Shown: positions 3,222-21,448 of the stretch, one piece after another
Numbering within the stretch: position 1 is the stretch's first letter
Layout: every line of letters begins with the position of its first letter
Made by a program: the position numbers and the translations under genes
Assembly: GCF_003987495.1 (NCBI RefSeq)
Contig: NZ_NGJU01000009.1
Coordinates: forward strand, 38,600 to 62,599
Reading direction: 5' to 3'
Source of the DNA: Vagococcus salmoninarum
GTDB lineage: Bacteria; Bacillota; Bacilli; Lactobacillales; Vagococcaceae
Length of the DNA stretch: 24,000 nt
Notes under the pieces: model-generated
The model's database searches: none
Seen by the model: only the letters and a program-made list of their open reading frames with translations
Told to the model about the DNA's origin: nothing

Positions 3222-3989
3222 ATGAAAAATTCAATTGAAAATATTCAGATACGTCAAGCCAGTATCTTACTTCTACTCCAAAAGAAAGGAGAACTGACTG
3301 CCAAAGACTTAGCTGAAGAACTTAAGGTCTCCCTTAGTACTATCCGCAGAGACTTAATCATTTTAGAAAATAAAAATGATATTATTCGGAAGCATGGCTA
3401 TTGCCTCTTTAACTTTAAAAACAAAGAACATTTTGATGAAACCGGTCCCCTAGTAATCAAGAATTTGATTGGCAAAGAAGCTGCTAAATTCATTAATAAT
3501 TATGACAGCGTTTTTATTAACACGAGTTCAACAGCCCTTTCAACTCTTGATTATGTCACTGCTGACTACTTAACAATTATTTCTAATAATTTAAAATTAA
3601 AACACAAACAACACATTCAACATTCCACCTATCTACTAACTGGTGGGGAGATGCGTTTTCCAAAAGAAGCTTTAGTTGGTGATATTGCGATTAATACGAT
3701 TACAGGAATGAATGCTGATGTTTGCATCATTGGATGTAACGGTGTTGATTTAGAAAATGGCGTCACTACAAAAATTCTTCATGAAGCTAAAATTAATGAA
3801 GTCATGATTAATCAGACCCGTTCTAAACGAATTTTAGTGGCTGACCATCGAAAAATCGGCCAAACATCTAAATTCAAAATCGCCGACCTTTCAGTCTTTG
3901 ACTACTTGATTACTGACCAATACAGTTCAGCGCCGACTTTAAAGGCGATTGAGAAGTTAGGCTTGCAAGTCATTCAAGTGTTTGTGTGA
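3222..3989 (+). CDS. DeoR/GlpR-family transcriptional regulator (UlaR-like by context)
   Basis: 255 aa. N-terminal HTH (LTAKDLAEELKVSLSTIRRDL) followed by a DeoR C-terminal sugar-phosphate-sensor-like domain. Divergent from the ula-type operon. Confidence 0.85.
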   Translation: MKNSIENIQIRQASILLLLQKKGELTAKDLAEELKVSLSTIRRDLIILENKNDIIRKHGYCLFNFKNKEHFDETGPLVIKNLIGKEAAKFINNYDSVFINTSSTALSTLDYVTADYLTIISNNLKLKHKQHIQHSTYLLTGGEMRFPKEALVGDIAINTITGMNADVCIIGCNGVDLENGVTTKILHEAKINEVMINQTRSKRILVADHRKIGQTSKFKIADLSVFDYLITDQYSSAPTLKAIEKLGLQVIQVFV

Positions 3990-6968: not shown

Positions 6969-7120
6969 TTTGTTCCTCCTAGTTCTTATTAAAATTAGAT
7001 TAGTTTAATTAGAGTTTTCTAATACATAAACTTTAGTATACGGAAAAAATTCAAATAAATCTAGTTATTTTACTTAACTAGATGATGTTTTTTTAAGTTT
7101 CTCTTGAAAATTCACCAACT

Positions 7121-7164
7121 AAAAAAGCCTCTAACTAACTTGTCATCAAGTCAGTCAGAAGCTT
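7121..7164 (-). terminator. Rho-independent terminator after the DUF2200 gene
   Basis: On the minus strand: AAGCTTCTGACTGACTTG-ATGA-CAAGTTAGTTAGAGGCTT (18-bp stem including 3 G-U pairs) followed by TTTTTT. Confidence 0.8.
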
Positions 7165-7177
7165 CTAAAGAGTTTTT

Positions 7178-7528
7178 TTATTGCCGTAAAATTTTCTCCA
7201 TCTTCTTCCCTTTCGCTAATTCGTCAATTAACTTATCCATGTAACGAATTTTTTGCATCAAAGGGTCTTCAATTTCTTCCACCCGATAACCACAGATCAC
7301 ACCTTTAATTAAGCTCACATTAGGATTTAAAGCTGGTGCTTCGGCGAAGAACGTTTCAAAATCAACCATCTTTTCGATTTGACTGACTAACTGGTCTTGG
7401 TCATAACCGGTTAACCATTGGATCACTTGATCAACTTCTGCCTTAGTCCGGTCCTTTTTCTCGACTTTAGTAATATATAAAGGATAGACACTAGCAAAAC
7501 TCATCTTAAATATTTTTGGTTCCTTCAT
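7178..7528 (-). CDS. DUF2200-family protein (function unknown)
   Basis: 116 aa. The N-terminus [34 protein letters not shown] matches my recollection of the DUF2200 family. AAAGGAG RBS upstream. Confidence 0.7.
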
Positions 7529-7558
7529 TATTCCACTCCTTTCTAGCTAGGTTCTTCA

Positions 7559-7888
7559 TTAAGCTTTGATATAACGATAGCTGTCTTCTTGTAACTCAAC
7601 TAAGCGGTAAATCCCGGCTGGAACAACTTCGACCCCTTCTAATAAGTCTGCTACGTTTATTTCTAAACTGTTTAAAGAATTTTGGCAAGCAGAAAAAGTC
7701 ACGCCACTAGCTCTTAAAACCGTCACTTTAGCTTGATAGTCTGGTTCTAAATAAGCTTTAACTCCTTGACTGTTGGCAACAACTTCGATTGTTAGTGTCT
7801 CTTCAGTGGCTTTGATTAAGTTTTTAACATTACTTAAGGCACCACTAAATTTCTCTGCTTCTGATACGTGAACAACAACTTTGACCAT
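7559..7888 (-). CDS. DsrE/DsrF-like (COG1416-type) small protein
   Basis: MVKVVVHV... beta-alpha layout with SACQNS near the conserved-Cys position of DsrE-like proteins. I prefer the ATG at 7888 (GGAGG 8 nt upstream) over the TTG at 7903 used in the ORF track. Confidence 0.65.
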   Translation of the reverse strand: MVKVVVHVSEAEKFSGALSNVKNLIKATEETLTIEVVANSQGVKAYLEPDYQAKVTVLRASGVTFSACQNSLNSLEINVADLLEGVEVVPAGIYRLVELQEDSYRYIKA

Positions 7889-7927
7889 TTCCAGGACCTC
7901 CAATTTCAGTAATTTTTTATTACATTT

Positions 7928-7957
7928 ATTGTATCATACCCTCTGAATTATTCTGAA
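7928..7957 (-). promoter_or_regulatory. Candidate promoter for the DsrE-like/DUF2200 pair: TTCAGA-18 nt-TGaTACAAT (extended -10)
   Basis: Read on the minus strand. The -10 is the complement of 7928-7933, with TG at 7935-7936. The -35 is the complement of 7952-7957 and lies within the direct repeat ATTCAGA-ATA-ATTCAGA. Confidence 0.5.
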
Positions 7958-7988
7958 TGATTGAGCCCTTCTTGTGATCTGTTAACGT

Positions 7989-9017
7989 TTAGATTCCCAT
8001 CTCAAAGTACTTTCCTAGTTCGCCAAAGTAACTAGTTACTAAAGGATCCAGCGGACATTCTAAACATGCTGCTACTTTTAATAATTTATGTAAATCAGCT
8101 AAATTATTTTTACAGATTAAAACGTAGCCTTTCGCCAACTCCCCAGTTGGTACAGTAATTGCGATTGCCCCAGCCATATTAACGACTCTGACAAAGCCTT
8201 TATTAGCTTTGATTTGTTCTGCTTGTGTCTGTTGATCAAAGTGTCCGAAGATGCTTTCGCCAAAACCTGCCACATCGACTGGGCCTTCTTCGGAAATCAA
8301 AAGGTCACAACTACTTAAAAGATTAGTTAATTCTTCAATTAAAACTTCCCGACTGGCTGTATATTTACTAGTTAAAGGCACTAGCTGAATGTCTGAAGTC
8401 ACGGTCTGAAGTCTTTCTTTTAACTTCGGACGACTTTCATCTAAGATGATCTTAGGTGACTCTCTTGACTGATTAACTAAGGGAAAGACCTCCTCAATTA
8501 AGTTAACTAAAAGGTGCCACTCTTTAGTCATAAAGCCTAGTGACGGGGAAAAGCTGATGCCATCTGTTGATGTTTTAGCCTCAACTTCTTTTTGAAAACT
8601 TTTGCCTAAATCTGGATGAATAAAGCCGTATAAGTTTAAACTCATAGCTGGCGCTAAGACGGAACCACCGCCATCTGTACCAATCCCAATGTCATTGATT
8701 CCTAAAAAAACATTCAAGGCTGTCCCACTTGATGAGCCCGTCATTGGTCGTCCTGTTAATGGATTCGTTAAATCTAAATCAATCCCTCGACCAGACAAAC
8801 TTCCTTTATCAACTGTGTGCTGATAATAACCTGCCTCTCGTAAACTCTCTACGAAGCTGGTAGGAATACTTTTGACTTCTTTAACTCCTAAGTAGTAACC
8901 AGACTCCTCGGTAATTTCTAGCAGTTGATTAGGGAACACTTTTTTGACTGACTTGGCTGGATTGACTAATGCTAAAAAACTTTTCTGAGCGTATTCTTTA
9001 ATGCGATTTTCCATCAT
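7989..9017 (-). CDS. Compact amidase-signature (AS) family-like protein
   Basis: 342 aa. NPLTGRPMTGSSSGTALNVFLGINDIGIGTDGGGSVLAPA resembles the AS signature (GGSSGG...GTDxGGSIRxPA), with both the cis-Ser and the nucleophile Ser present. A candidate Lys lies in GVKEVKSIPTS. GGAGG sits 3 nt before the first ATG and 6 nt before the second ATG (9014). Confidence 0.5.
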   Translation of the reverse strand: MMENRIKEYAQKSFLALVNPAKSVKKVFPNQLLEITEESGYYLGVKEVKSIPTSFVESLREAGYYQHTVDKGSLSGRGIDLDLTNPLTGRPMTGSSSGTALNVFLGINDIGIGTDGGGSVLAPAMSLNLYGFIHPDLGKSFQKEVEAKTSTDGISFSPSLGFMTKEWHLLVNLIEEVFPLVNQSRESPKIILDESRPKLKERLQTVTSDIQLVPLTSKYTASREVLIEELTNLLSSCDLLISEEGPVDVAGFGESIFGHFDQQTQAEQIKANKGFVRVVNMAGAIAITVPTGELAKGYVLICKNNLADLHKLLKVAACLECPLDPLVTSYFGELGKYFEMGI

Positions 9018-9034
9018 TTGCCTCCTTCAATAGT

Positions 9035-9066
9035 AAAAAAGACTGGGAATCAATAACTTCCCAGTC
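9035..9066 (-). terminator. Intrinsic terminator/attenuator between the yhfW-like and amidase-like genes
   Basis: On the minus strand: GACTGGGAA-GTTATTGA-TTCCCAGTC followed by TTTTTT. It sits 15 nt after the yhfW-like stop and ends about 10 nt before the amidase RBS. Confidence 0.7.
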
Positions 9067-9080
9067 CCTTTTACTCACAA

Positions 9081-10292
9081 CTATTCGATTATTTTATTTA
9101 AAAATGAACTACCGTGTTGAGGTGCTTCGACTTTAAAGAAGTCTGCCACTGTCGCTCCCACATCTGCCATTGTTGTTCTTTCGCCAATGACTTTGCCCTT
9201 AACATTTGGACTATAAACTAAAAGTGGCACTCGTTCCCGAGTATGGTTACTATGGCCAATCGTCGGATCATTGCCGTGATCCGCCATAACAACTAAGATA
9301 TCACCTTCAACTAATAGGGGTAACAGTTCTGCAATCCGCCGATCACTTAGCTCTAAGCGGTCAGCGTAGCGCCCAACATCTTCAGCATGACCTGCTAAAT
9401 CTGTTTCCTGAATATTTAAGGCGATAAAGCCCTCGGTAACGTCTCTCACTTCTGACAGTAAGCAATCAAATAAATAATCGGAATCCACCCCAGGAAATAA
9501 CCGTTGACTATCCGTTTGAATAATATCAGCAATTTTTCCTAAGAAAGAATTCGTGATCCCATGATTATCTAAAATAGTTGGGGTTTGAACTTTTTTATCA
9601 ATCCCATAACCTAAATGGACAACTTGGTAACCATGATTATAGACCCCTGATTCAGGGGCATCAACACCAGCAATCTCAGCATTTTTCGTTTTAAAGGCTC
9701 CTAGTAAATCAGCTAATGTGACTTGTTCGCCGCCAAAAGTAATGACCCGGGAAACTTCTACAACTTCTCGGACTACTTGGCCGAGCTTGCTTAAATCTGA
9801 AAAACTAATCAAATCAAGACAAGCTGAGACATTGTAGACTTGACCGTAATCAGTTTCTAAGTTGTCACCAACTGTGGCGTAGTCATTAACGACTAAGATT
9901 TGGGTACCAGGCTCACCGACTCGGCGGACGCTGTAGCCGTTTTTAACTAAATTAGCTTCAACTTCAGCAATTTTTTGATTGAAGGGTTGAATCAATGGAA
10001 CTTTCGGTGTTGTTCCCATAATTTCTTGATGACCTAAAAATGAATCTGCCCCATGATGGGCTAAGTTAGCTGTCCCGTAATTTGCTTCTTTTGAAAAATG
10101 GTGACTACCAATTTCATAGCCAAGAGCATTCATCAAGCCTAATTTTTCTAATGTTGGTAACTTAATTGCCGGCATTTTTTCGATAATATGACCTGCCGTA
10201 GTACTACCAAGGTCACGAGGACGAACTTTAGCCACATCTGCCATCGCACCGACCCCAAAACTATCTAAGACAATAACGATAAATCTACTCAT
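9081..10292 (-). CDS. YhfW-like phosphopentomutase-family (alkaline-phosphatase superfamily) mutase
   Basis: 403 aa. Motifs are colinear with DeoB: VLDSFGVG, GADSFLGHQEIMG (Ser where DeoB has the Thr nucleophile), DLAGH, ADHGNDP. Its RBS overlaps the stop of the upstream gene (4-nt gap). Confidence 0.85.
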   Translation of the reverse strand: MSRFIVIVLDSFGVGAMADVAKVRPRDLGSTTAGHIIEKMPAIKLPTLEKLGLMNALGYEIGSHHFSKEANYGTANLAHHGADSFLGHQEIMGTTPKVPLIQPFNQKIAEVEANLVKNGYSVRRVGEPGTQILVVNDYATVGDNLETDYGQVYNVSACLDLISFSDLSKLGQVVREVVEVSRVITFGGEQVTLADLLGAFKTKNAEIAGVDAPESGVYNHGYQVVHLGYGIDKKVQTPTILDNHGITNSFLGKIADIIQTDSQRLFPGVDSDYLFDCLLSEVRDVTEGFIALNIQETDLAGHAEDVGRYADRLELSDRRIAELLPLLVEGDILVVMADHGNDPTIGHSNHTRERVPLLVYSPNVKGKVIGERTTMADVGATVADFFKVEAPQHGSSFLNKIIE

Positions 10293-10296
10293 TTTT

Positions 10297-11451
10297 TCAC
10301 CTTCTAATTAAATTTCCAAGACTGTTATAAATACCTTCGATTTTAGGCTTCCCGCTTTGGATGCCAGAAACAACGGCAACGTCACTACGAGTTACAAATA
10401 TTTGGGTTCTAAAAGCCGCAATCACCGTTGCACCAATCGGATGGGTGTGTTGACTCGTTAAATAATAGTCGATGCTCTCATTACCAAATGGAGCGACTTG
10501 ATCTTGAACAGCATAGTCTACATCATTAACTAAAATTTCTTCTAAATGGCCGCGACGGTAATACCCACCACCATAAAAATAACCTTTCCCATCTAAGTTA
10601 TGGGAAATTTCACTGACGTAAACCATTCCTGGCAATTCAGCTAAATCCATTTTCGCATGTAAGGGTGTTGAGCCTGTCAAAGCATGACCTGGTTCGCCTT
10701 GGGTGCCTTTAATGCTTTTTATCATAGGAATTGTTTTGCTACAAGTAGCAGAAGGAATATTAATTTCTGAGATTTCAATTCCTTTAGCCCCTAGTATTTC
10801 AACAGCTTTTTCAATTGTTTTAACATTATTCGTCGGGGTTAATTCTGAGACGCCGTCAAATAAGAAACAAGGAAATGAAGTAATCCCAGCAATTTCCACA
10901 TGTTCAAGATTTTTTACTAGTGTTGCTAACGCACCTAACTGGTCTAGATGAAACCCACCATTTTGGCCTTCATAAATTTCGTCAGTACTTTCAATCATTT
11001 TAATTAATAATTTTTGCTTCACATTGAGTTTTTTAGCAATTTCATTAATCTGTTCAATGATTTCTAGTGAAAAAACGGTAAAAAATTTAGGGCCATAAGC
11101 AATCACTTTTTCTAATAAATGTTTCGGCACTTGGACTAAATGCCCCACATTGCCGATTGGTAACTGCTGCTCCATCATGACTAACGCTTCTTTAAAATCA
11201 ACAACGACAGCATCAGTAATTCCTGCTTCGTGAATTTTTTGGGCAACTAACGGATTACGACCAAGTTGTTTCGTCATATAAAACAAGTCGATGCCAGCTT
11301 GATCCGCACTCGCTTTTAACGTTTTGGCATTAGCGACGATAGTATCTAAATCTAAGACGTATGTATCTGGCAAAATTGCGCCACTTTGATGTAATTGGAT
11401 TGCTGATTCGATCAACTTAGGATTTCTACGTTTCGTAACATCTAAAAACAT
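10297..11451 (-). CDS. YhfX-like fold-type-III PLP enzyme (alanine-racemase N-terminal barrel family)
   Basis: 384 aa. Barrel-type layout with a candidate PLP lysine in FYMTKQLGRNP. Occupies the same position next to the yhfW/yhfY homologues as in E. coli. Confidence 0.75.
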   Translation of the reverse strand: MFLDVTKRRNPKLIESAIQLHQSGAILPDTYVLDLDTIVANAKTLKASADQAGIDLFYMTKQLGRNPLVAQKIHEAGITDAVVVDFKEALVMMEQQLPIGNVGHLVQVPKHLLEKVIAYGPKFFTVFSLEIIEQINEIAKKLNVKQKLLIKMIESTDEIYEGQNGGFHLDQLGALATLVKNLEHVEIAGITSFPCFLFDGVSELTPTNNVKTIEKAVEILGAKGIEISEINIPSATCSKTIPMIKSIKGTQGEPGHALTGSTPLHAKMDLAELPGMVYVSEISHNLDGKGYFYGGGYYRRGHLEEILVNDVDYAVQDQVAPFGNESIDYYLTSQHTHPIGATVIAAFRTQIFVTRSDVAVVSGIQSGKPKIEGIYNSLGNLIRR

Positions 11452-11452
11452 C

Positions 11453-11803
11453 TTAATCCTCCTTCAGCATATTAATAATGTGAAGATAGAAGTAATCTAA
11501 TTCTGCCTCTTCAAATTTATTCTCCGCCATCTCTTCTAAATCTTGCCATAGCTCTTTAGAATGTAAAAAATTAGGATCACCAGTAATTTCAGCGACGATA
11601 AAGTCATCTAAGCTGGCGATTGATTCATTCTTTTTACGACGAGCATCTGCCATCGCTAAATGTGTTAAGAAAACATCGGCCTTCGTAGCATCACTAATAA
11701 TCTTAGTCGCTAATAAATAATCTAGTACTTTTAGCACATAATCTTCTGTTGTTTTTTCAATAATTTGTGACTCAACTAATATCTCAAGTTTTTGTTTTAT
11801 CAT
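11453..11803 (-). CDS. YhfY-like stand-alone PRD-domain protein
   Basis: 116 aa from the ATG at 11803 (AAGGAG 8 nt upstream). All-helical, with His48 (FLTHLAMADARR) and His108 (YLHIINML) 60 residues apart, as in PRD modules. The longer track ORF would overlap yhfZ by 80 nt. Confidence 0.75.
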   Translation of the reverse strand: MIKQKLEILVESQIIEKTTEDYVLKVLDYLLATKIISDATKADVFLTHLAMADARRKKNESIASLDDFIVAEITGDPNFLHSKELWQDLEEMAENKFEEAELDYFYLHIINMLKED

Positions 11804-11816
11804 TTGTTTGGCTCCT

Positions 11817-12740
11817 TTAGTATCTTGGGATAGTCGTCCCTCTAACCACATCTTCTTGGATGGTAATAACTTTTTCTTTTTGAAAACTTTTAGCAAAAAA
11901 GGCCTTCATCGAAGAATCTTCTTGATGACAAATAACGACTGAAGCCCCCATCTCTGTTGCTAATTTATTTTCAGTTAAATTGACATAATTTAAGTCTTCA
12001 TAGTTTTTATCACGAATTTCATCAAAGTTCCAAATACCAGCATCAATTTGTTGACTCTTTAAGGAGTGAATAATTTGATGACCTGGCATTTCAACTAAGG
12101 TGACTTCTTTGTCTTGAATATTATCTTTCGTCAACATTTGTTGGTCCAAAGAACTATAATCAATTGCCACTTTCATTCCATCCCTTATCTGGTCATTGGC
12201 TAAATTGGCAAATAATAAGACGTGACCACTTAAATAAGTGTTGTTGCCAAAGTCCACGGCAACTTCGATTGGCTCCCCTTGCTCAATCGCTCGCTTAGCA
12301 GCAAAGCGTGACACTACTGCAAAACGATAAGTTTTCATGGTTATTGAGCGAACCCGCTCTTTTGACCCTCGAATATAAGCTAAATTTAATTTAATATTAT
12401 TGTCTTTAAATTCCTCGTAAATCCCTGTTGCCATGCCTTCGTATAATCTAGAATAAGGCAAGGTCATCGTTCCTAAAATGGCTTCAGAGAGAGCATATTC
12501 TTGTAAAATGGCGTAGTTAATTTCTTCAATAAAAGTGCCCAAGTGCCCACTGCTTTTTGTTTTCAAAGCTTCTTCAGTTTTCAAATAATTCAAGGCATTT
12601 TGGACAGTTCCTCTAGCAACATCGTACTTTAATTGATACTCAGAAATACTCGGCATTTTATCGCCTTTCTTTAATTGCAATAAATCTGATGCTAAGTAAT
12701 TAACAATGACGCCTTTTTTAGTTAAGAATTTATTACTCAC
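11817..12740 (-). CDS. YhfZ-like transcriptional regulator (GntR-type winged HTH plus YhfZ C-terminal domain)
   Basis: 307 aa with a GTG start. N-terminal wHTH (SISEYQLKYDVARGTVQNALNYLK). Length and position match E. coli YhfZ as I recall it. Confidence 0.75.
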   Translation of the reverse strand: MSNKFLTKKGVIVNYLASDLLQLKKGDKMPSISEYQLKYDVARGTVQNALNYLKTEEALKTKSSGHLGTFIEEINYAILQEYALSEAILGTMTLPYSRLYEGMATGIYEEFKDNNIKLNLAYIRGSKERVRSITMKTYRFAVVSRFAAKRAIEQGEPIEVAVDFGNNTYLSGHVLLFANLANDQIRDGMKVAIDYSSLDQQMLTKDNIQDKEVTLVEMPGHQIIHSLKSQQIDAGIWNFDEIRDKNYEDLNYVNLTENKLATEMGASVVICHQEDSSMKAFFAKSFQKEKVITIQEDVVRGTTIPRY

Positions 12741-12750
12741 TCTGATTTCC

Positions 12751-13848
12751 TCATTTCTTGACTTGTTTCATCGCTTCTTTTAAAATAGTTAAAATCGTTT
12801 CCGCTCCAGCACGGTTAGGATTAATTCTGATCATTGTGTCTTCAGCTGTTGGATCGGCAGCTCGGAATGTGCCAGAGACCCGATAAACTAGAGGTGAAAA
12901 CTCATACTTTGATTCCGCCCCGACTGGATTAGGTAAAGCACCAAGGGTAGTAGCAGCTTCAATGACTGCTTTGGCATTGTCTTGCTGTAATTTAACGACT
13001 ACAACTTTTGATTGAGCATTCACAACAAAGGCCTCAGCTAAGCCTTGAACTTCCCCTTGATTAATTCTATCACAAATTTCCTCACTTACTTTAGCGGAAA
13101 TTGCTAAAGAGACTGGGGCATAGATCAAGCCTTTTAAAACATCTAAGGCTTCATGACCTTGAACTTGACCCCCACCTGAGTAATTTTCAGTTTTTAACTG
13201 TTTTAAATATTTTTCGTCACCAACAATACAGCCAATGCCTTCTGGACCTAATAGTTTAAAGGTTGAGAAGCAAGCCAAACTTCCGCCAAATTGACTACCA
13301 ATCCCTGCAGTTTTCATCGCTGAATAGTTGTCATCAGTAATAATCGGAATTGTCTTATCAAGATTGCGGATAGTGGCAATCAATTCCGCTAAATCATAAG
13401 AGTCATCCATTTTTTGACGAGTGACTTGAATTAAAATACCGTCAAATCGCTCCTTAGCTAAGATGGCTTGAACCTCTGCCAATTGGTTAAAATCAACAGC
13501 AACTGTTTCAATGCCTAGCATCTCAAATGAGACTTGGGTTGTCGGATAAACCGGTGCCTGATGGACTAAGACTTTCCCCCCTGAACCAACAGCAGCATGT
13601 AAGGCTAAACGAATGGCATTAGTGCCTGCCCCACGAACGAGCAGAGCGCTTTCCGCTTCAAAGAAATCAGCTAAGGCCGTTTCTACTTTATTAGTTGTGA
13701 CCGGTTGATTAAGCCCTTTAACTACGCCTAAATCGCCACGGGTTAAAATTTCATTGCCTGGAAAGTGACGAGTAATTGAATCAACCAGCTTAAATTGCAG
13801 CTCAGTTGCTTCGCTTATCGTTAAACTTTTCAAAGGATAGACTTTCAT
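12751..13848 (-). CDS. YhfS-like fold-type-I PLP-dependent enzyme
   Basis: About 365 aa. Candidate PLP lysine in ACFSTFKLLGPEGIG, and a glycine-rich GAGTNAI segment. I prefer the ATG at 13848. The track TTG at 13863 overlaps the php stop. Confidence 0.75.
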   Translation of the reverse strand: MKVYPLKSLTISEATELQFKLVDSITRHFPGNEILTRGDLGVVKGLNQPVTTNKVETALADFFEAESALLVRGAGTNAIRLALHAAVGSGGKVLVHQAPVYPTTQVSFEMLGIETVAVDFNQLAEVQAILAKERFDGILIQVTRQKMDDSYDLAELIATIRNLDKTIPIITDDNYSAMKTAGIGSQFGGSLACFSTFKLLGPEGIGCIVGDEKYLKQLKTENYSGGGQVQGHEALDVLKGLIYAPVSLAISAKVSEEICDRINQGEVQGLAEAFVVNAQSKVVVVKLQQDNAKAVIEAATTLGALPNPVGAESKYEFSPLVYRVSGTFRAADPTAEDTMIRINPNRAGAETILTILKEAMKQVKK

Positions 13849-13853
13849 TGTTT

Positions 13854-14735
13854 TCACTTCCAATTCATAAATTCATGAGGGTTTTGTTCTAACATTTTTG
13901 TAATAAAACTTTGAGACACACCATTTTCTAAAGCCATTGGCACGAAGGTATCTAGTAAATAAGAATAACCCATGCCACCCATGTATTCTAAGTTAGACTT
14001 ACGAGTAATGTCCATTGATAAAAAGACTTTGTCAGTGTAGCCACGTTTCTCAATTTCTTTAAGCATCTCAACTCTTAAAAGGTCTGGTTGATAGTTTTCT
14101 TTACCAATTGTATCAAATTCAACATAAACCCCTTGATCCAATATTTCTAAAACATAGTTGATATCACCAGTTAAATCCACATGACCAATGACGATTTTAT
14201 TCAAATCAGCTTGGTGCTTTTTGAAGAAAGCCACTTGTTCATGACCGTATGTCCCTAAAGTCGTGTGGGTCGTAATTGGCACCCCAGTCTCTTGTTGGGC
14301 GATAACTGACGCTAAGAAAACTTTTTCTTCTTTTTCCGTCATCATGTTTTTACTTGTCCCGATTTCACCAATAATTTGTGCCTTGATCGTTGTGTCAGCA
14401 ATGCCTTCACGAATTTCTTTCACCATGAACGCCGTAAGCTGCTCTACTGAATATGTCTCCACAAAAGCTGGTAAAAATTTGTCTTGGTAAAATCCTGTGG
14501 CTTGAACAATGTTCATGCCAGTTTCTTCAGCAACCCTTTGGACATAGGCAGGGTTTCTGCGCATGTCCATATTGGTTACATCAACAATGTTTCTAACACC
14601 TTTAGTATACAATTTTTTGTATTCTAAGACAGTTTCTTCGTAACAGTTTAAGTTTGTATCATCAATATTTTTCAACCGTGATAAATCGATGGTTGTGTGT
14701 TCGTGCATGTATGTGATTCCCGGTTTTAAAACCAT
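13854..14735 (-). CDS. php: Phosphotriesterase-homology protein (Php/YhfV; amidohydrolase superfamily, binuclear metal centre)
   Basis: 293 aa (E. coli Php is 292 aa). Clear by-eye colinearity with E. coli Php: HEHxxIDLS, TGFYQD, IGEIGTS (Glu in place of the PTE carbamylated Lys), TTHT, IGHVDL, FDTIGK, LSMDITR. Confidence 0.92.
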   Translation of the reverse strand: MVLKPGITYMHEHTTIDLSRLKNIDDTNLNCYEETVLEYKKLYTKGVRNIVDVTNMDMRRNPAYVQRVAEETGMNIVQATGFYQDKFLPAFVETYSVEQLTAFMVKEIREGIADTTIKAQIIGEIGTSKNMMTEKEEKVFLASVIAQQETGVPITTHTTLGTYGHEQVAFFKKHQADLNKIVIGHVDLTGDINYVLEILDQGVYVEFDTIGKENYQPDLLRVEMLKEIEKRGYTDKVFLSMDITRKSNLEYMGGMGYSYLLDTFVPMALENGVSQSFITKMLEQNPHEFMNWK

Positions 14736-14749
14736 TTAAACCATCCTCT

Positions 14750-16066
14750 CTAGCCAACAATAACTGGGGTAAACAAGCCTAGTAAGTATAGAATATTAAC
14801 AATAATACCTAAACTAATGGCTGCGATTGGCCCAACAGCTAAGTCAACAACTGGTTTTTTCGCTTTACGGTTAAGTAATAACAAACCAATTACCCAGAAG
14901 TAACCAATGCCAGGAGCAATTGCTTCAGATGCCATCGCACCACCAATTAATAAGGCAACTTCTAAGACTTTGTTCATAGCTGTTCGAATGTGGTCACCCA
15001 TTTCTCTAATTCCAGGGAACTTATCTAAAGCTTTAGCCATTAATGTTAATAATTGGACTTCAATGACCATTACTAAAGCACCAAGGACAAAGGCTAAGAT
15101 TGGGTTACCTTTTAATAAGATACCAACTACAAAGACAAACGTTGTGCCAGCAGGACTATAAACACCTGTGACGATTGCTGTTGAGAAGACTAAGGGAATA
15201 AAGCCAATCCCTCTAGCAAGAGCTGCTAAAGCTGCTTCATTCATTTTTCCTTCAGCTAATAAATTTAAAGAAATTGGATCACCAGCAATTAATAATAAAC
15301 TTGTGGCAGCTGAGACTAATCCGCCCATAACTGATAACCACATCCAGTTTTTCTTAATGCGGTTAACCCGTTCTAAGAAAATACTAACAAGACTTTCATT
15401 TGAGGTACTACCATCGCTTTTAACTTTGATTGCATAATAAATCATGAAAATCATGCCGACTAAAAGAGACATACCTTCTGCACTAAGTGTTAGTGAGGCA
15501 CCATTTCCTACACTAAATGTTCCAAATTGTTTTACAATGAATAATGTCAATAACGTTGCAGAAAATGAAATAAAACCTTTTTTAGCGCCATGTTGACTCG
15601 CAATTGCTACTGCTGGGAAAATACTAAACGCAACGACAACTGGTGCTCCTACTTTTGATAATGAATCAATAAAGTTAACTGGCATCATGGCAAACCCATC
15701 AACTACGGCTTGTAAACCTAGAACTAAACCGATCCCGTAAAGAGCGCCGACGATTCCGGCAATGATCATGCCTTTTTTACCTTCTGGTGCCCATGAACCA
15801 ATAATATCAGTCATTAATAAAATACTATGAACTAATAAAATCGACGCCCCAATTGAAACGGGGATCCCAAAACCAATAACTAATCCAAAACTTAAAGCAA
15901 AACTCGTTGCTGCTAATTCTTTTTTACCAATTTTTCCTTCTAAAAATTCTGGGACAATCGGTCGTAAGCCATCATTAAAAACGGCGATGCCTTTATTTGC
16001 TAAAATTGAACTTAAGCCACCTAATAATGCAATTGCAATTAATTCAATTATCTTCGAAGACTCCAT
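14750..16066 (-). CDS. YhfT-like polytopic inner-membrane protein (putative permease)
   Basis: 438 aa with about 11-12 hydrophobic segments. Located between the yhfU and php homologues. Size matches E. coli YhfT as I recall it. Confidence 0.8.
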   Translation of the reverse strand: MESSKIIELIAIALLGGLSSILANKGIAVFNDGLRPIVPEFLEGKIGKKELAATSFALSFGLVIGFGIPVSIGASILLVHSILLMTDIIGSWAPEGKKGMIIAGIVGALYGIGLVLGLQAVVDGFAMMPVNFIDSLSKVGAPVVVAFSIFPAVAIASQHGAKKGFISFSATLLTLFIVKQFGTFSVGNGASLTLSAEGMSLLVGMIFMIYYAIKVKSDGSTSNESLVSIFLERVNRIKKNWMWLSVMGGLVSAATSLLLIAGDPISLNLLAEGKMNEAALAALARGIGFIPLVFSTAIVTGVYSPAGTTFVFVVGILLKGNPILAFVLGALVMVIEVQLLTLMAKALDKFPGIREMGDHIRTAMNKVLEVALLIGGAMASEAIAPGIGYFWVIGLLLLNRKAKKPVVDLAVGPIAAISLGIIVNILYLLGLFTPVIVG

Positions 16067-16086
16067 AATTTCTCCACCTTACTCTT

Positions 16087-16452
16087 TTAATTTAATTTTT
16101 TTAATTCATCAATAATGATTGGGACAACAATGTCTTTATGTTGAGCTGTGAAACCAAAAGCTTTTTTACCACTTTGGACTTCAGCCCGGATTTCTTCTTC
16201 CGTCATCATGTTTGATGGCATTGAAACGGTTACACAATTTTCTCTACCTAGTAATGCTAGAGCCATTGCCAAAGCACCGCCACCACCTGTATTACAAGCA
16301 CCTAAGTAATAGTCAGCTTGACCAGCCTTAACAGCCATCGCTGCATCTAAATCACTCTTAACATCAATTTCGAAACTCCCTTGAGTACTACTTTCGACTA
16401 GAACTTTAACTTCTGGTTTGTCGATTTGTCCTCCAATGACGATTTTTTTCAT
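16087..16452 (-). CDS. YhfU-like DUF2620 protein with a Cys/Gly-rich loop
   Basis: 121 aa. MKKIVIGG...DYYLGACNTGGGGALAMALALLG. First gene of the cluster. GAGGAGG RBS upstream. Confidence 0.8.
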   Translation of the reverse strand: MKKIVIGGQIDKPEVKVLVESSTQGSFEIDVKSDLDAAMAVKAGQADYYLGACNTGGGGALAMALALLGRENCVTVSMPSNMMTEEEIRAEVQSGKKAFGFTAQHKDIVVPIIIDELKKLN

Positions 16453-16519
16453 TGAAATTCCTCCTCTTTCTCAATATACATTTTTTTGTATTTTGATACC
16501 TACTTCTTAATACCCCCTC

Positions 16520-16548
16520 ATTATAATTAGATAGTTGTCAAAATGCAA
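16520..16548 (-). promoter_or_regulatory. Candidate sigma-A promoter of the yhfU-T-php-S-Z-Y-X-W operon (TTGCAT-17 nt-TATAAT)
   Basis: Read on the minus strand. The perfect TATAAT is the complement of 16520-16525 and TTGCAT is the complement of 16543-16548, with exactly 17 nt between them. Gives a ~60-nt leader to the ATG at 16452. Confidence 0.55.
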
Positions 16549-16661
16549 GCCTTTTCTTTTGATTATTAAATAAATACTTATTTAACTAATAATTACACTA
16601 TTTATTTCACTATTATTAAATATCCGATAATTAAACTATTCTCACCTTTACTAATAGAACA

Positions 16662-16691
16662 TAAAAAAACAGGCAGACACTGCCTGTTTTT
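16662..16691. terminator. Rho-independent terminator after the coiled-coil gene; insulates the yhf-type operon
   Basis: ACAGGCAG-ACA-CTGCCTGT (16669-16687), flanked by A7 and T4. On the minus strand the stem is followed by T7. Confidence 0.8.
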
Positions 16692-16715
16692 AAAATTTCT
16701 TTTGCTGGCTTCCCT

Positions 16716-17117
16716 TTAACTTAACAAGCCTGACTCTTTTAATATTTTTCGAGCTTCATGTAAGGCTTTCTTTTGCTCTAAGAAGCTGGCTACTTTATTC
16801 GTTGATTCAGCCATTTTAGTGACTGTTTCTTCTAGTTTAACAAAGTCGTTATCAATTTTTTGAGCAAGCTCTAGTTCTGACTCTGTTTCATAAATCACAT
16901 CGTCAATCGCCTTATCAATCGCTTTTCCTTCTAATTTCTCAACTTTTTTAGCCTTTCTAACAATCACATGAATATTGTGAATGGCTTTCTCTTGCTCGTA
17001 AAATTCTTTGACTTTACTATCGGTTTCTGTCATCTTTTCAAGATTGACGGCTAAACTTTCTAACTCATTATTAATTTTGTTTAATAGTCTAACTTCTTTA
17101 TTCGTTAATTCTGACAT
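16716..17117 (-). CDS. Hypothetical coiled-coil protein with an internal ~45-aa duplication
   Basis: 133 aa, Glu/Lys-rich and helical. The two halves align: NKINNELESLAVNLEKMTETDSKVKEFYEQEKAIHNIHVIVRK versus QKIDNDFVKLEETVTKMAESTNKVASFLEQKKALHEARKILKE. No family recognised. Confidence 0.6.
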   Translation of the reverse strand: MSELTNKEVRLLNKINNELESLAVNLEKMTETDSKVKEFYEQEKAIHNIHVIVRKAKKVEKLEGKAIDKAIDDVIYETESELELAQKIDNDFVKLEETVTKMAESTNKVASFLEQKKALHEARKILKESGLLS

Positions 17118-17163
17118 GATTGATTCCTTCTTTCTTATTTTAATTCAGCGTCACCACTTATGA

Positions 17164-17687
17164 CTAGCTGAAAGCTTCCACGATATAAAAAATACCAATC
17201 CACATTAAGTAAAATCCAACTAAAAAGCTTAAAGTTAGCGCTGAAGTAATCGGATCAAAAAGTAAGGAAATACTAATCAAAATACCTACTATACTTAAAA
17301 TTAACTGTAACCAATAATTGGCAGTACTTAGAGATTTCGCTTGTTCTAAAGAGAACAAACCGCCAATTGAATCGACTAAAAACCAAGTAGCAAAAACAAA
17401 GGGCAGCGCCATAATACTCGTAGTTAGATTAAATAGTAACAAGAATCCGAGGATAATATCAAAGACCCCAATAATCAGTAAACTCGTTCCTGGCATGCCG
17501 GTTTTTTTTTTACTTTATTTCTAAAAAAGACATCAAATCCCCCTTTGACAATCGCAAGCATCCCAAAGAATACTGTAATCCCCGCTAAATTGCCAACGGG
17601 ATTTCTAAAAGAAATGAGGGCAGTTAAGATAAACAACACGCCGACAATTAAATTTCCCCATTTAAAACTACTTTTACTGTGAGTCAT
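17164..17687 (-). pseudogene. HdeD/DUF308-family membrane protein split by a frameshift in an A10 tract
   Basis: Two overlapping ORFs (17475-17687 and 17164-17496) together form one ~174-aa protein with DUF308-type TM repeats. The frames join at the coding-strand A10 run (17502-17511). A11 would read ...NKVKKKTGMPGTSLL... Confidence 0.8.
17502..17511. repeat. Homopolymer T10 (A10 on the coding strand) at the HdeD frameshift
   Basis: Counted directly: g(17501), t x10 (17502-17511), a(17512). Confidence 0.95.
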
Positions 17688-18951: not shown

Positions 18952-19551
18952 TTGGACACATCTTTGGAATTGTCTAATAACTTCCCTTATAAATTAGACA
19001 TGAAGCTTAATAATACTCATAAACACTTAATCAATGCTCTTTACCGTTTAGTTGAAAAATATCCCTTCGATACCTTGAGTGTTAAACAAATTTGTGATGA
19101 AGCTAGTGTTAGCCGTTCAAATTTTTATAATCATTTTGACGATAAATATCATTTACTACTTTTTTATCTAAATTTAATTTATCATAACTTACAAAATAAA
19201 ATTTCTTTTAATAATAATCGGCTAATCTTTGATGATTTTTTATTATACATTCAAGACCATGGCCTTTTTTTCAAATCCTTATTTTCATATGAAAACGGCA
19301 CGGAACTTAGTAAGTTACTTGAAAATGTAGTAACTGAAGACATTACTAGTTTTTTTAAAGATAGACATTCAAAAGATAACTTAGAAGATAATTTATTAAC
19401 ACAACTTCAAATTGTTTTTCTGACTGGCGCTTTAACTAACACGATACAATGGTGGGTCTGTCACGATTTTCCCGTTTCAATTGCTGAAATCAGCCAAGGA
19501 CTTGACGATCTGATTAAGCCTGATCTCTTAAATCCACCAAAAAAAGACTAA
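18952..19551 (+). CDS. TetR/AcrR-family transcriptional regulator
   Basis: 199 aa. N-terminal HTH (SVKQICDEASVSRSNFYNHFDDKYHLL). TTG start with GGAGG 9 nt upstream. TATAAT at 18920-18925. Confidence 0.85.
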   Translation: MDTSLELSNNFPYKLDMKLNNTHKHLINALYRLVEKYPFDTLSVKQICDEASVSRSNFYNHFDDKYHLLLFYLNLIYHNLQNKISFNNNRLIFDDFLLYIQDHGLFFKSLFSYENGTELSKLLENVVTEDITSFFKDRHSKDNLEDNLLTQLQIVFLTGALTNTIQWWVCHDFPVSIAEISQGLDDLIKPDLLNPPKKD

Positions 19552-19606: not shown

Positions 19607-21448
19607 TTACTCAGCAACTTCTTCAAATTGTGAATTATAAAGTGAGGCATAATAACCACCTGCCGCTAATAATTCATCATGGGTTCCTTGCTCTTTAATG
19701 TCCCCATCTTGCATATAAAGAATCTTATCAGCATCTTTAATTGTTGATAGACGGTGAGCAATGACAAATGACGTCCGTCCTGACATCAAGTTATTCATGG
19801 CCTCTTGAATCAAGCCTTCTGTCCGCGTATCAACAGAAGAAGTTGCTTCATCAAGAATTAAAATTGGTTTCTCAGCTAAGATTGCCCGGGCAATCGTCAA
19901 CAATTGCTTTTGCCCTTGGGAAATATTCGAAGATTCCTCATTTAGTTCCATATTATAGCCACCAGGTAAGGTTTGGATAAATTGGTGAACGTGAGCGGCT
20001 TTAGCAGCTTCGTAAACTTCTTCATCCGTTGCTTCTAGACGACCATAACGTAAGTTCTCCATGATCGTTCCTTTGAATAACCAAGTATCTTGTAAGACCA
20101 TCCCGATGTTTTTCCGTAAGTCACCGCGATTAAAGTCTTTAATATTATGGCCTTCAATTTTGATAGCGCCACTATTAACATCGTAGAAACGCATTAAAAG
20201 TTTAACCATCGTTGTTTTACCAGCGCCAGTTGGTCCCACAATCGCCACCATTTGACCTGGCTCAACGTGTGAGCTAAAGTCATTAATAATGTTACGATCT
20301 GCCGTATAACCAAAGTTAACATGTTCAAAATCAACCATACCTTCAACGTGATCCAATATGACTGGATTTTCAGCAAACTGAGCTTCTTCTTCTTCACCTA
20401 AGAATTCAAAGACTCGTTCCGCTGCCGCTGCCATTGATTGTAACATGTTAGACACTTGGGCTAATTGAGCAATCGGTTGGGTTAAGTTTCTAACGTATTG
20501 AATAAAGGCTTGGATATCACCGACGGTAATCGCGCCACTGTATGCCATCATTCCCCCGAAAATCGCGACTGCCACGTAACCTAAGTTACCGACAAAGTTC
20601 ATGATTGGTTGCATTAAACCAGATAGAAATTGTGATTTCCAAGCTGATTTAAATAAAATATCATTTTGTTCTTTAAATTCTTTTAAAGCATTTTCTTCTT
20701 CGTTAAAGAGACGAACGATGTTATAACCACCGATTGTTTCTTCAACTTTCCCATTAATTACCCCAAGATATTCTTGTTGGGTTTTAAAGTATTTTTGTGA
20801 GTTTTTCACGACGATCATAATTAAAATTAATGAAATTGGCACAATTAAGACGGCAATCCCGGTCATTTTAACTGAGATTGATAACATCATAATAATGACA
20901 CCAATAATCGTGAAAGTTGACGTAATCAATTGGGTAATTGATTGGTTCAAGGATTGACCAAGTGTATCCACATCGTTCGTTATCCGTGATAAGACTTCAC
21001 CTGTTGTCCGACTTTCAAAATAATTCATCGGCATCCGATTAATTTTCTCAGAGATTTCTTTCCGCATTCGGTAAGTGATTTTTTGAGAAATCGTCGACAT
21101 GATCCAACCTTGGAAAATTCCAAAGAGGGCTGCCACAACATACAAGCCTAGCATGAAGAGCAAGATGCCACCAATTTTCGTGAAATCAATGCCGCCTGTT
21201 CCTTGATATTTTTTAATTAAGCCATTAAATAATTCAGTAATGGCTGATGATAAAATTTTCGGTCCCCAGATATTAAAAACCGTCGATGCAATTGCAAAGA
21301 TGACTACTAGGATCATTGGAAGTTTGTAGCTACCAATATAGGCTGCTAGTTTCTTAATTGTTCCTTTGAAATCTTTGGCTTTTTCGACTTTCGCCATCGG
21401 TCCATGTCCACCGCCGCCACGAGGGCGATTTTGATTTTTTTCTGTCAT
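19607..21448 (-). CDS. Heterodimeric ABC exporter half-transporter (TMD-NBD), consensus-site subunit (LmrD/BmrD/TM288-like)
   Basis: 613 aa with a Gly-rich N-terminal tail. Walker A GPTGAGKTT, Walker B ILILDEATSSVD (catalytic Glu present), H-loop AHRLST. The signature is non-canonical: SQGQKQ. Confidence 0.9.
   Translation of the reverse strand: MTEKNQNRPRGGGGHGPMAKVEKAKDFKGTIKKLAAYIGSYKLPMILVVIFAIASTVFNIWGPKILSSAITELFNGLIKKYQGTGGIDFTKIGGILLFMLGLYVVAALFGIFQGWIMSTISQKITYRMRKEISEKINRMPMNYFESRTTGEVLSRITNDVDTLGQSLNQSITQLITSTFTIIGVIIMMLSISVKMTGIAVLIVPISLILIMIVVKNSQKYFKTQQEYLGVINGKVEETIGGYNIVRLFNEEENALKEFKEQNDILFKSAWKSQFLSGLMQPIMNFVGNLGYVAVAIFGGMMAYSGAITVGDIQAFIQYVRNLTQPIAQLAQVSNMLQSMAAAAERVFEFLGEEEEAQFAENPVILDHVEGMVDFEHVNFGYTADRNIINDFSSHVEPGQMVAIVGPTGAGKTTMVKLLMRFYDVNSGAIKIEGHNIKDFNRGDLRKNIGMVLQDTWLFKGTIMENLRYGRLEATDEEVYEAAKAAHVHQFIQTLPGGYNMELNEESSNISQGQKQLLTIARAILAEKPILILDEATSSVDTRTEGLIQEAMNNLMSGRTSFVIAHRLSTIKDADKILYMQDGDIKEQGTHDELLAAGGYYASLYNSQFEEVAE

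Follow-up and report, generated by a model that had tools for sequence, protein, structure and literature searches.

A yhf/php-type gene cluster of Vagococcus salmoninarum with a recurrent ninth amidase gene and a candidate operator found across phyla

The yhf/php genes of Escherichia coli K-12 (b3376-b3383) constitute one of the larger gene blocks of this bacterium still without a function, despite the solved structures of Php, YhfS and YhfX. Clusters of this type are known and carry annotations, and the Pfam families already imply that they exist in Firmicutes. In the stretch of Vagococcus salmoninarum DNA analysed here (contig NZ_NGJU01000009.1, positions 38,600 to 62,599; the whole 24,000 nucleotides are referred to as the window), the NCBI annotation already names DUF2620, YhfT family, phosphotriesterase family, GntR regulator YhfZ, alanine racemase, phosphopentomutase and amidase family proteins. 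Of eight proteins of the window looked up by exact sequence, seven are present in public collections under this species name. Counterparts of yhfU, yhfT, php, yhfS, yhfZ, yhfY, yhfX and yhfW lie tightly packed on the minus strand from 16452 to 9081, and a gene for a compact amidase follows them. The identity of this cluster as one of the yhf/php orphan type is secure; orthology, packing and conservation are all observed. The same set, usually with the amidase gene as a ninth member, is kept across distant phyla together with a common cis-element, and NagB, HPr and PBP4B-like additions appear in some lineages. Considered as a whole, the region appears likely, if not firmly so, to be one regulated unit, composed of a sigma-70-type promoter, a candidate operator in the 5′ untranslated region (5′ UTR), the eight packed genes, a hairpin, and the amidase gene. 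Its parts, in the direction of transcription, are the following:

16665..16691, no strand assigned: bidirectional terminator-like hairpin with a 12-bp stem and T-runs on both strands, which ends the upstream gene and marks the 5′ boundary of the unit
16520..16556, minus strand: promoter read directly, with a GAAAAGGC block, a -35 TTGCAT (16548-16543), a 17-nt spacer and a -10 TATAAT (16525-16520)
16471..16496, minus strand: 26-bp palindrome TCAAAATACA-AAAAAA-TGTATATTGA in the 5′ UTR, candidate YhfZ operator
16087..16452, minus strand: yhfU-like gene, DUF2620 (Pfam 153.8 bits; 40% identity to YhfU), RpiB-fold protein with an invariant Cys53-x-Thr55
14750..16066, minus strand: yhfT-like gene, polytopic membrane protein and presumed permease (Pfam YhfT 573 bits; 35% identity to YhfT)
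13854..14735, minus strand: php-like gene, PTE-family binuclear metallohydrolase (Pfam PTE 281 bits; 47% identity to Php)
12751..13848, minus strand: yhfS-like gene, lyase-like fold-type I enzyme dependent on pyridoxal phosphate (PLP), with YhfS-like_C (138 bits) and a class-V aminotransferase fold (52% identity to YhfS)
11817..12740, minus strand: yhfZ-like gene, GntR-type winged helix-turn-helix regulator with a binding-protein-like C-terminal domain (Pfam HTH_41 and YhfZ_C)
11453..11803, minus strand: yhfY-like gene, stand-alone PRD module (the open reading frame reaches 11896; likely start ATG 11803)
10297..11451, minus strand: yhfX-like gene, fold-type III PLP enzyme of alanine-racemase fold (Ala_racemase_N and YhfX-like_C; 42% identity to YhfX)
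9081..10292, minus strand: yhfW-like gene, phosphopentomutase-family phosphomutase (Pfam Metalloenzyme; 52% identity to YhfW)
9035..9066, minus strand: intrinsic terminator between yhfW and the amidase gene, a hairpin at 9041-9066 followed by T6 (U-tract)
7989..9017, minus strand: gene for a compact, probably cytoplasmic amidase-signature (AS) protein of 342 aa (Pfam Amidase 41.9 bits, residues 90-132 only)

All eight products match the E. coli proteins of the same names one-to-one and over their full length in blastp, at 24-52% identity. The open reading frames (ORFs) end as listed, and two starts were moved by alignment to E. coli, that of yhfS from 13863 to ATG 13848 and that of yhfY from 11896 to ATG 11803. 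With these corrections, the gaps from yhfU through yhfW measure 20, 14, 5, 10, 13, 1 and 4 nt, several Shine-Dalgarno sequences abut or overlap the preceding stop codon, and terminator prediction on the gene strand gave no strong internal terminator within the eight-gene block. An initial annotation, made from the DNA letters and their ORFs, had described eight co-directional ORFs at 9081-16452 with gaps of 1-20 nt and ribosome-binding sites overlapping the preceding stops, and had placed a TTGCAT-17-TATAAT promoter before them and no terminator until 9035-9066. These coordinates and gaps hold, all on the minus strand; the promoter is read at 16548-16520, and the first strong terminator on the gene strand is indeed the hairpin at 9041-9066 with its T6. 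The HMM and BLAST searches that it had proposed for each ORF recover all eight of the families it had assigned, that of YhfY being below threshold in Pfam and retrieved by its profile. The E. coli order that it had given, Z-Y-X-W-php-U-T-S, is that of the K-12 annotation and differs from the U-T-php-S-Z-Y-X-W of Vagococcus. Gene order is highly variable within this cluster type and hardly serves to define it.

A scan of one genome per species by YhfT alignment revealed relatives in 299 species, and the best 80 loci, which are those closest to the Vagococcus YhfT and among which Proteobacteria are under-sampled, were analysed after labelling their ORFs by blastp. With A for the amidase gene and P for php, the order U-T-P-S-Z-Y-X-W-A is found in Enterococcaceae, Vagococcus and Granulicatella, and A(-)|U-T-P-S-Z-Y-X-W in Alkalibacterium and Carnobacterium. 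Clostridia and Erysipelotrichia exhibit either Z-Y-U-T-A-P-S-X-W or Z-Y-U-T-P-A-S-X-W, and Lactobacillus and Companilactobacillus carry Z-Y-U-T-P-S-X-W without the amidase gene. This neighbourhood comparison, which had also been proposed in the initial annotation, yields near-invariant pairs rather than long blocks: X-W are adjacent in 72 of the 72 complete clusters, U-T in 71, P-S in 62 (the other ten read P-A-S) and Z-Y in 58. Of the two blocks that had been thought to be kept, U-T is thus conserved and Z-Y-X-W is not generally so, since in most Firmicutes U-T-(A)-P-S separates Z-Y from X-W.

The set is conserved in Bacilli, Clostridia, Erysipelotrichia, Fusobacteriota, a spirochaete plasmid and Proteobacteria, and its flanks are variable. 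The occurrence on plasmids together with flanks that vary everywhere suggests that the cluster spreads horizontally as a unit. Plasmids or megaplasmids carry it in three further phyla or classes, namely plasmid p118 of Entomospira (L033), a 705-kb megaplasmid of Cetobacterium (Fusobacteriota; L087, Z-Y-U-T-A-P-S-X-W) and a plasmid of Vibrio halioticoli (L088, Z-Y-P-U-T-X-W). A 485-kb plasmid of Bacillus thuringiensis (L086, 9184-19711) holds a reduced Y-U-T-P-S-X set, with no yhfW or yhfZ listed in a PLSDB gene table that is possibly incomplete; downstream of this set come a hypothetical gene, a pair of ATP-grasp genes and one for an MFS transporter.

The cis-element shared by these clusters is a palindrome with the consensus TCAATATACA-A6-TGTATATTGA. 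The copy in the window, located between the -10 and the ribosome-binding site, has one mismatch in its left arm and is the single match in 24 kb, where 0 are expected. When up to three mismatches were allowed, 88 matches were obtained in 82 loci, and 88 of 88 lie inside the cluster spans, which make up 53% of the searched sequence; 30 composition-matched shuffled palindromes gave a mean of 0.57 matches. At least one copy is present in 65 of the 82 loci, and it precedes the first gene of the transcription unit, which is yhfU in clusters of the Enterococcaceae type and yhfY, often yhfZ, in those that begin with Z-Y. The palindrome also stands before the amidase gene in one locus (L070, 31 nt upstream) and before a PBP4B-like gene in Granulicatella, it overlaps the -10 in Entomospira, and in E. 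coli the sequence AATATTCAAAAAAATGAATATT is found 31 nt before yhfX, with a degenerate copy just before yhfZ. Distances from the palindrome and some of the gaps in the related loci are approximate, because ORF starts there are longest-ORF calls. We infer that the GntR-type regulator YhfZ, which accompanies the cluster, probably uses the palindrome as its operator. A second copy, AAGATACAAAAAAATATATATT, is seen about 50 nt inside the annotated yhfY in Granulicatella-type clusters (L002, 7309-7330; likewise L019, L020, L022 and L023), and it may represent an internal operator or promoter for Y-X-W-A, or else a mis-called yhfY start.

Regarding the promoter, its -35 hexamer, TTGCAT, fits only three of the six consensus bases, and for this reason it is absent from the list of the promoter scanner. 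An alignment of 10 orthologous loci shows that both hexamers and the upstream block have been kept while the spacers have diverged. In these ten upstream regions (from Vagococcus, Enterococcus and two Erysipelotrichia-like lineages), three islands are conserved: a GAAAAGGCTTGCAT block, the -10, and the downstream palindrome. The GAAAAGGC block, directly upstream of the -35 (16549-16556 of the window; L004-L013 and L027), is kept across genera in neighbouring sequence that has diverged, and it could represent an UP-like element or another binding site, or else indicate that the whole promoter-operon unit has moved horizontally. As for RNA elements, Rfam gave only a chance snoRNA match (E 0.79) for the 5′ UTR and the rest of 7000-17500, with no riboswitch or other known RNA.

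The amidase gene belongs to the yhf system as a recurrent ninth member. The initial annotation had singled it out as an extra gene; the ORF at 7989-9017 is real, whereas the peculiarity to this genome does not stand, as the gene is present in 55 of the 72 complete clusters (Bacillota and Fusobacteriota), in at least five positions and often within the operon with gaps of 2-30 nt. In Granulicatella adiacens and in an Enterococcus species, it directly follows yhfW in the same nine-gene block, with different flanks. The Pfam Amidase match spans only some 43 residues of a model of about 445 positions, and canonical members exceed this protein by about 100 residues. Nevertheless, its AlphaFold2 model (pLDDT 90.8) gives whole-length Foldseek matches to AS enzymes (2dc0, GatA and MAE2) at E values of about 1e-12, with TM-scores of about 0.6 normalised by the query and 0.36-0.49 normalised by the target. 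Moreover, sequence conservation reveals K46, S95 and S119 to be invariant, with the canonical spacing of 24 residues from the cis-Ser to the Ser; they are candidates for a Ser-cisSer-Lys catalytic triad. This protein is a cut-down and probably active AS hydrolase, and the lack of any hydrophobic segment or signal peptide indicates a probable cytoplasmic location. Its homologues are all of about 320-390 aa, and the family is small, with 174 representatives at E <= 1e-3 and 83 at E <= 1e-30 among 1.84 billion. Four of the six distant members that were looked up adjoin yhf-cluster genes, and the two most distant are in other sugar-phosphate operons. One of these lies behind an FGGY kinase, Rpe and an ABC sugar transporter (L090, 9001-10152), and the other stands with an SDR, an FGGY kinase, RpiB, a G3P-dehydrogenase-like gene, HPr and a class II aldolase in an erythritol/tetritol-like set (L095, 5138-6268).

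In the window, the hairpin between yhfW and the amidase gene has a dG of -26.5 kcal/mol and a z-score of -5.0, none of 200 shuffles being equally stable. The yhfW-amidase gap is of 63 nt, and the ribosome-binding site of the amidase gene is found some 20 nt past the hairpin. Comparable hairpins appear at this junction in Vagococcus and Enterococcus relatives, and none in Granulicatella, where the gap is of 8-9 nt. Because a strong hairpin separates the two genes, the amidase is probably expressed by terminator read-through in this lineage. In Enterococcus sp. BWB1-3 (L016, 17237-17696), a 54-nt unit repeated 8.5 times in tandem with 96% matches, followed by a second 54-nt repeat, expands this spacer to about 940 nt.

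Among the enzymes of the eight-gene block, the Php-like protein matches PDB 1bf6/4lef at E 2e-82 and conserves H11, H13, E124, H157, H185 and D242 in at least 97% of 85 sequences. In the structure of 1998, the metal ligands of E. coli Php are reportedly a His-x-His, a Glu, two further His and an Asp, at positions 12, 14, 125, 158, 186 and 243; the six conserved residues of the Vagococcus protein stand at these positions. The score of this protein against the NCBIfam model PRK09875 (329 bits) is under the cut-off of 486, and that against Pfam PTE is well above threshold. YhfS matches the E. coli YhfS structure (4j8l), followed by methionine gamma-lyase, C-S lyases and cysteine desulfurases, and holds an invariant Lys203 (ORF numbering). 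The earlier assignment to fold-type I PLP enzymes stands, with the refinement that YhfS resembles gamma- and beta-lyases and desulfurases more than aminotransferases. Since its closest solved relatives are PLP lyases and desulfurases, elimination chemistry seems more likely for YhfS than transamination. The other PLP enzyme, YhfX, has an invariant Lys61, and its sole PDB match at the 1e-3 threshold is E. coli YhfX (4kbx). YhfW appears by its sequence to be a member of the phosphopentomutase superfamily. It scores 579.7 bits against NCBIfam PRK12383 (cut-off 254) and 163 against the deoB model TIGR01696, under the cut-off of 341. The Asp/His motif residues of phosphopentomutases are kept in this protein, and Ser84 aligns with the Thr of the KDTMTGHWE motif of the Bacillus cereus phosphopentomutase, which we take to be the phospho-acceptor.

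Two regulators are encoded in the middle of the block. YhfZ reaches 393.6 bits against the NCBIfam model YhfZ_full (cut-off 260). YhfY, as a single sequence, falls below the Pfam PRD cut-off (18.3 versus 23 bits), and it is also a weak match to TIGR03582 (E 0.009). Its family profile matches the LicT PRD (1tlv, E 6e-11) and also GlcT, and two invariant His align with the LicT PRD2 His residues that are Asp in the activated mutant 1h99. These alignments identify YhfY as a true PRD module with both phosphorylatable histidines.

The AlphaFold2 model of YhfU (pLDDT 95) has as its best Foldseek match the ribose-5-phosphate isomerase RpiB, with TM-scores of 0.67-0.71 and a root-mean-square deviation of about 3.1 Å, and in alignments its invariant Cys53-x-Thr55, within GACNTGGGG, falls on the CGTG motif of the RpiB family. 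YhfU had been called RpiB-like in the initial annotation, and this holds at the level of the fold, the sequence similarity being insignificant. No significant sequence relative of YhfU was found in the PDB, where the E-values to RpiB are 0.35-0.65. In hhalign comparisons, a genuine RpiB (that of L095) gave a probability of 0.1% with only the Cys loop aligned, and E. coli UlaB gave an insignificant match that is likewise restricted to the Cys loop, in that protein the phospho-Cys loop. Assignment of YhfU by sequence to either RpiB or EIIB was consequently set aside, as hhalign is insignificant for both and does not discriminate between them. YhfU is not filed here as an RpiB family member because no significant sequence or profile similarity exists and the remaining catalytic and phosphate-binding residues are not found. 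YhfT exhibits about 10-12 hydrophobic segments, and a profile search of the PDB gave no relative at E-values up to 10. A role for YhfT as a PTS (phosphotransferase system) EIIC component was rejected on the same absence of a PDB profile match and on an hhalign probability of 0.3% against the EIIC-GAT protein encoded in the window itself.

On the basis of family resemblance and genomic context, we consider it fairly probable that the cluster is a PTS-sensing, YhfZ-repressed catabolic operon for an imported amino-acid/sugar(-phosphate) conjugate. In such an operon, the GntR-type YhfZ would repress at the palindrome until released by a pathway metabolite, and the two histidines of the PRD protein YhfY would link either expression or activity to the PTS. 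YhfT, paired with the Cys-containing, RpiB-fold YhfU, would import a small conjugate in which an amino-acid moiety is joined to a sugar or sugar-phosphate moiety, and the amide and ester or lactone bonds of this conjugate would be cut by the amidase and the Php metallohydrolase. The amino-acid part would then be disposed of by YhfX, with its racemase fold, and the lyase-like PLP enzyme YhfS, and the sugar phosphate would be channelled into central metabolism by the phosphomutase YhfW, the isomerase-like YhfU and, in some Clostridia, NagB. Terminator read-through would supply the amidase in smaller amounts.

Catabolism of a phosphorylated or esterified sugar-amino-acid conjugate had already been suggested for the eight genes; it keeps its conditional standing and gains support from accessory genes for NagB, HPr, a HAD phosphatase and PBP4B-like lipoproteins. 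In five loci of Clostridia, a nagB gene that scores above the TIGR00502 cut-off starts at most 6 nt from the yhfW stop or overlaps it. An HPr paralogue with a GLHARPA His motif is present in two of the nagB loci and in one further sporeformer, and the latter locus also carries a HAD sugar-phosphatase-type gene. PBP4B/AmpH-like PF00144 proteins, all with a signal peptide or lipobox, are encoded next to the cluster or within it in no fewer than 13 loci, which represent at least six lineages, and in Streptobacillus such a gene fills the slot between php and yhfS taken elsewhere by the amidase gene. No kinase gene was seen within any analysed cluster. Phospho-sugar lactonases act on phosphorylated sugars. 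As no kinase is present, yet the YhfW, RpiB, NagB and phospho-sugar-lactonase families use phosphorylated sugars, the phosphate would arrive either with the substrate or by way of the PTS.

Several points weigh against this catabolic operon. The similarity of the modelled YhfU to RpiB is structural only, with sequence E-values of 0.35-0.65, and the N-terminal Asp-His and C-terminal Arg/His phosphate-binding residues, which we presume to be those that RpiB uses, are apparently unconserved and not evident in YhfU. As YhfT lacks any detectable relative among known transporters, even transport is inferred. A strong terminator precedes the amidase gene in the window, so that its co-expression with the other eight genes is putative. 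Only a minority of the loci have accessory NagB, HPr or PBP4B-like genes, and the window has none of them. The spacer of the palindrome is strand-biased, with 74 sites in which its sense strand is rich in A against 11 in which it is rich in T. Such a bias is unexpected for a simple symmetric DNA operator and might be due to bending of the DNA, to the promoter context or to a function in the transcript. Finally, no experiment or paper linking these genes to a substrate was found in the searchable literature, which leaves most subscription journals outside its scope. Matches there are limited to same-named Bacillus subtilis genes, genome lists and screens that mention yhfZ in passing, and no functional assignment was found, in line with the orphan status claimed for the cluster from the start. 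No mention of the palindrome site was found in it either. Within that literature, the nine-gene version with the compact amidase, the cross-phylum candidate operator, the RpiB fold of DUF2620 and the NagB, HPr and PBP4B-like extensions appear to be undescribed.

One alternative, which we regard as unlikely, is the salvage of cell-wall fragments. The substrate would be a piece of peptidoglycan or teichoic acid, that is, an amino sugar or polyol phosphate carrying D-amino acids, released in some species by the surface PBP4B/AmpH-like lipoprotein and stripped after import by the amidase or Php; YhfX and YhfS would handle the D-amino acid, and YhfW, YhfU and NagB the amino-sugar phosphate. The PF00144 genes in at least 13 loci and six lineages, which in Granulicatella stand behind the palindrome, the coupling of nagB to yhfW and the alanine-racemase fold of YhfX are all consistent with this proposal. 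It would also agree with the place of E. coli PBP4B (yfeW), which we take to lie in the murQP operon for N-acetylmuramic acid. FmtA of Staphylococcus aureus, another PF00144 protein, is a D-alanyl esterase of teichoic acids. However, the cluster lacks MurQ, NagA, NagK and AmiD-type genes, PF00144 is a broad family that includes esterases, and the lipoprotein is absent from the window, from E. coli and from most loci.

A second alternative, to which a similarly low probability is assigned, is a non-canonical phosphotransferase uptake, with YhfT as the membrane component and YhfU (Cys53) as a phospho-carrier fed by HPr, possibly via the histidines of the YhfY PRD. Entry of the substrate would then be coupled to its phosphorylation, and this would account for the missing kinase in a cluster whose downstream enzyme families act on phospho-sugars. 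The adjacency of U and T in 71 of 72 loci, the PRD with both His, and the dedicated HPr paralogues at the end of several clusters point in this direction, as does the glycine-rich loop of YhfU with its invariant Cys, which matches the phospho-Cys loop of UlaB no worse than it matches RpiB (both insignificantly). In contrast, Foldseek places YhfU with RpiB, the Cys following strand 3, with no EIIB in the top 50; YhfT is unlike EIIC-GAT, no EIIA is encoded in the cluster, and PRD and HPr may be purely regulatory. It can be put forward as a speculation that YhfT, YhfU and YhfY, with HPr in some species, form a previously unrecognised PTS-coupled uptake module, made up of a new membrane family, an RpiB-fold Cys protein as phospho-carrier or first enzyme, and a free-standing PRD, and supplying a new catabolic route for an amino-sugar/amino-acid conjugate under a 26-bp YhfZ operator that extends from E. 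coli to Firmicutes and Fusobacteria. If PTS-linked uptake were true, a new kind of transporter would be added to a well-studied system.

More doubtful still is a third alternative, in which the cluster would break down glycated amino acids (Amadori or Heyns products, for example glucoselysine and ribuloselysine) as a companion to the fructoselysine (frl) operon of E. coli. In its favour, a distance of 151 bp separates yhfS from frlR and the frlABCD operon in E. coli K-12, enzyme families for amino acids and for sugar phosphates are combined in the cluster, and NagB would suit a 2-amino-2-deoxy-hexose-6-phosphate product; nevertheless, no frl-type kinase or deglycase is present, and frl genes adjoin the cluster in none of about 90 loci outside E. 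coli, and the adjacency in that species may be due to chance. Lastly, the amidase gene could be viewed as a neighbour unrelated to the operon, from which the terminator at 9041-9066 would separate it. That strong terminator, the 63-nt gap and the lack of an operator copy in front of the gene within the window lend themselves to this view, which is nevertheless very improbable and already contradicted by the comparative data: the family is tied to yhf genes in 55 of 72 clusters, in at least five positions and often at distances of 2-30 nt, it numbers only 174 representatives out of 1.84 billion, four of six distant members adjoin yhf-cluster genes, and in L070 the palindrome lies 31 nt upstream.

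The catabolic operon for an imported conjugate can now be approached with several experimental handles gained here, namely a reporter with the candidate operator, a regulator that may sense a ligand, and a short list of possible classes of substrate. The other genes of the window were also considered as parts of the system and rejected, as none of the flanking genes (DsrE-like, DUF2200, M42, OppA-like, M20 and DUF308) neighbours the cluster elsewhere, including in other Vagococcus. A nucleoside hydrolase gene was discarded as a recurrent neighbour because it occurs in a few loci only, upstream of the operator. After the amidase gene, and on the same strand, lie the DsrE/DsrF-like (7559-7903) and DUF2200 (7178-7528) genes. 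On that strand no terminator-like site is predicted in 7000-7989, and a promoter-like site with a TG-extended -10 is found at 7957-7928. At one end of the window there is an ula/sga-like set on the minus strand, with EIIC-GAT (22-1506), EIIA_2 (1520-2044) and an UlaG-like protein of metallo-beta-lactamase fold (1992-3059), divergent from a gene at 3222-3989 (plus strand) whose product looks like a DeoR-type regulator; no EIIB is encoded inside the window, and it may sit beyond position 1. Towards the other end, a 199-aa ORF at 18952-19551 (plus strand) resembles a TetR-type regulator, and the ORFs at 19607-21448 and 21464-23845 (minus strand) look like ABC exporter subunits, the latter with a long Ala/Glu/Lys-rich insert at about residues 150-230.

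Comparison with known systems places the individual components as follows. Like the RpiB/LacAB isomerases, YhfU has an alpha/beta fold with a Cys-x-Thr in the glycine-rich loop after strand 3; contrary to them, it is about 30 residues shorter and is always encoded beside a membrane protein. YhfY resembles the PRDs of the LicT/BglG/GlcT antiterminators in its profile match (E 6e-11) and in both of its kept histidines, and differs from these proteins in being a single PRD of about 115 aa, without CAT RNA-binding, DNA-binding, EIIA or EIIB domains. The compact amidase shares with the AS enzymes (GatA, malonamidase E2 and FAAH) the AS fold throughout, the GSSSG and GGGS motifs and the 24-residue Ser spacing, and one Lys is invariant in it; with about 340 residues instead of 410-600 it constitutes a small separate family.

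At the level of whole clusters, those of the EF_0829/AHA_3910 type encode a TIGR03582 PRD protein, a glycine-rich SFCGS protein, DUF4310/4311 membrane proteins, a SelA-like PLP enzyme, an amidohydrolase and an aldolase. Compared by description, they follow a logic like that of the yhf/php type, in which a small PRD protein and a small Cys protein rich in glycine are combined with novel membrane proteins, a PLP enzyme and a member of the amidohydrolase superfamily, and they differ from it in the protein families involved. The closest system is the yhfZ-Y-X-W-php-U-T-S cluster of E. coli K-12, which has all eight families encoded co-directionally and tightly packed, with a related palindrome (AATATTCA-N6-TGAATATT) before yhfX and yhfZ. 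In Vagococcus, by contrast, the regulators are embedded in the middle of the operon, a single operator candidate precedes yhfU, and the cluster has an additional compact amidase gene and no frl operon as its neighbour.

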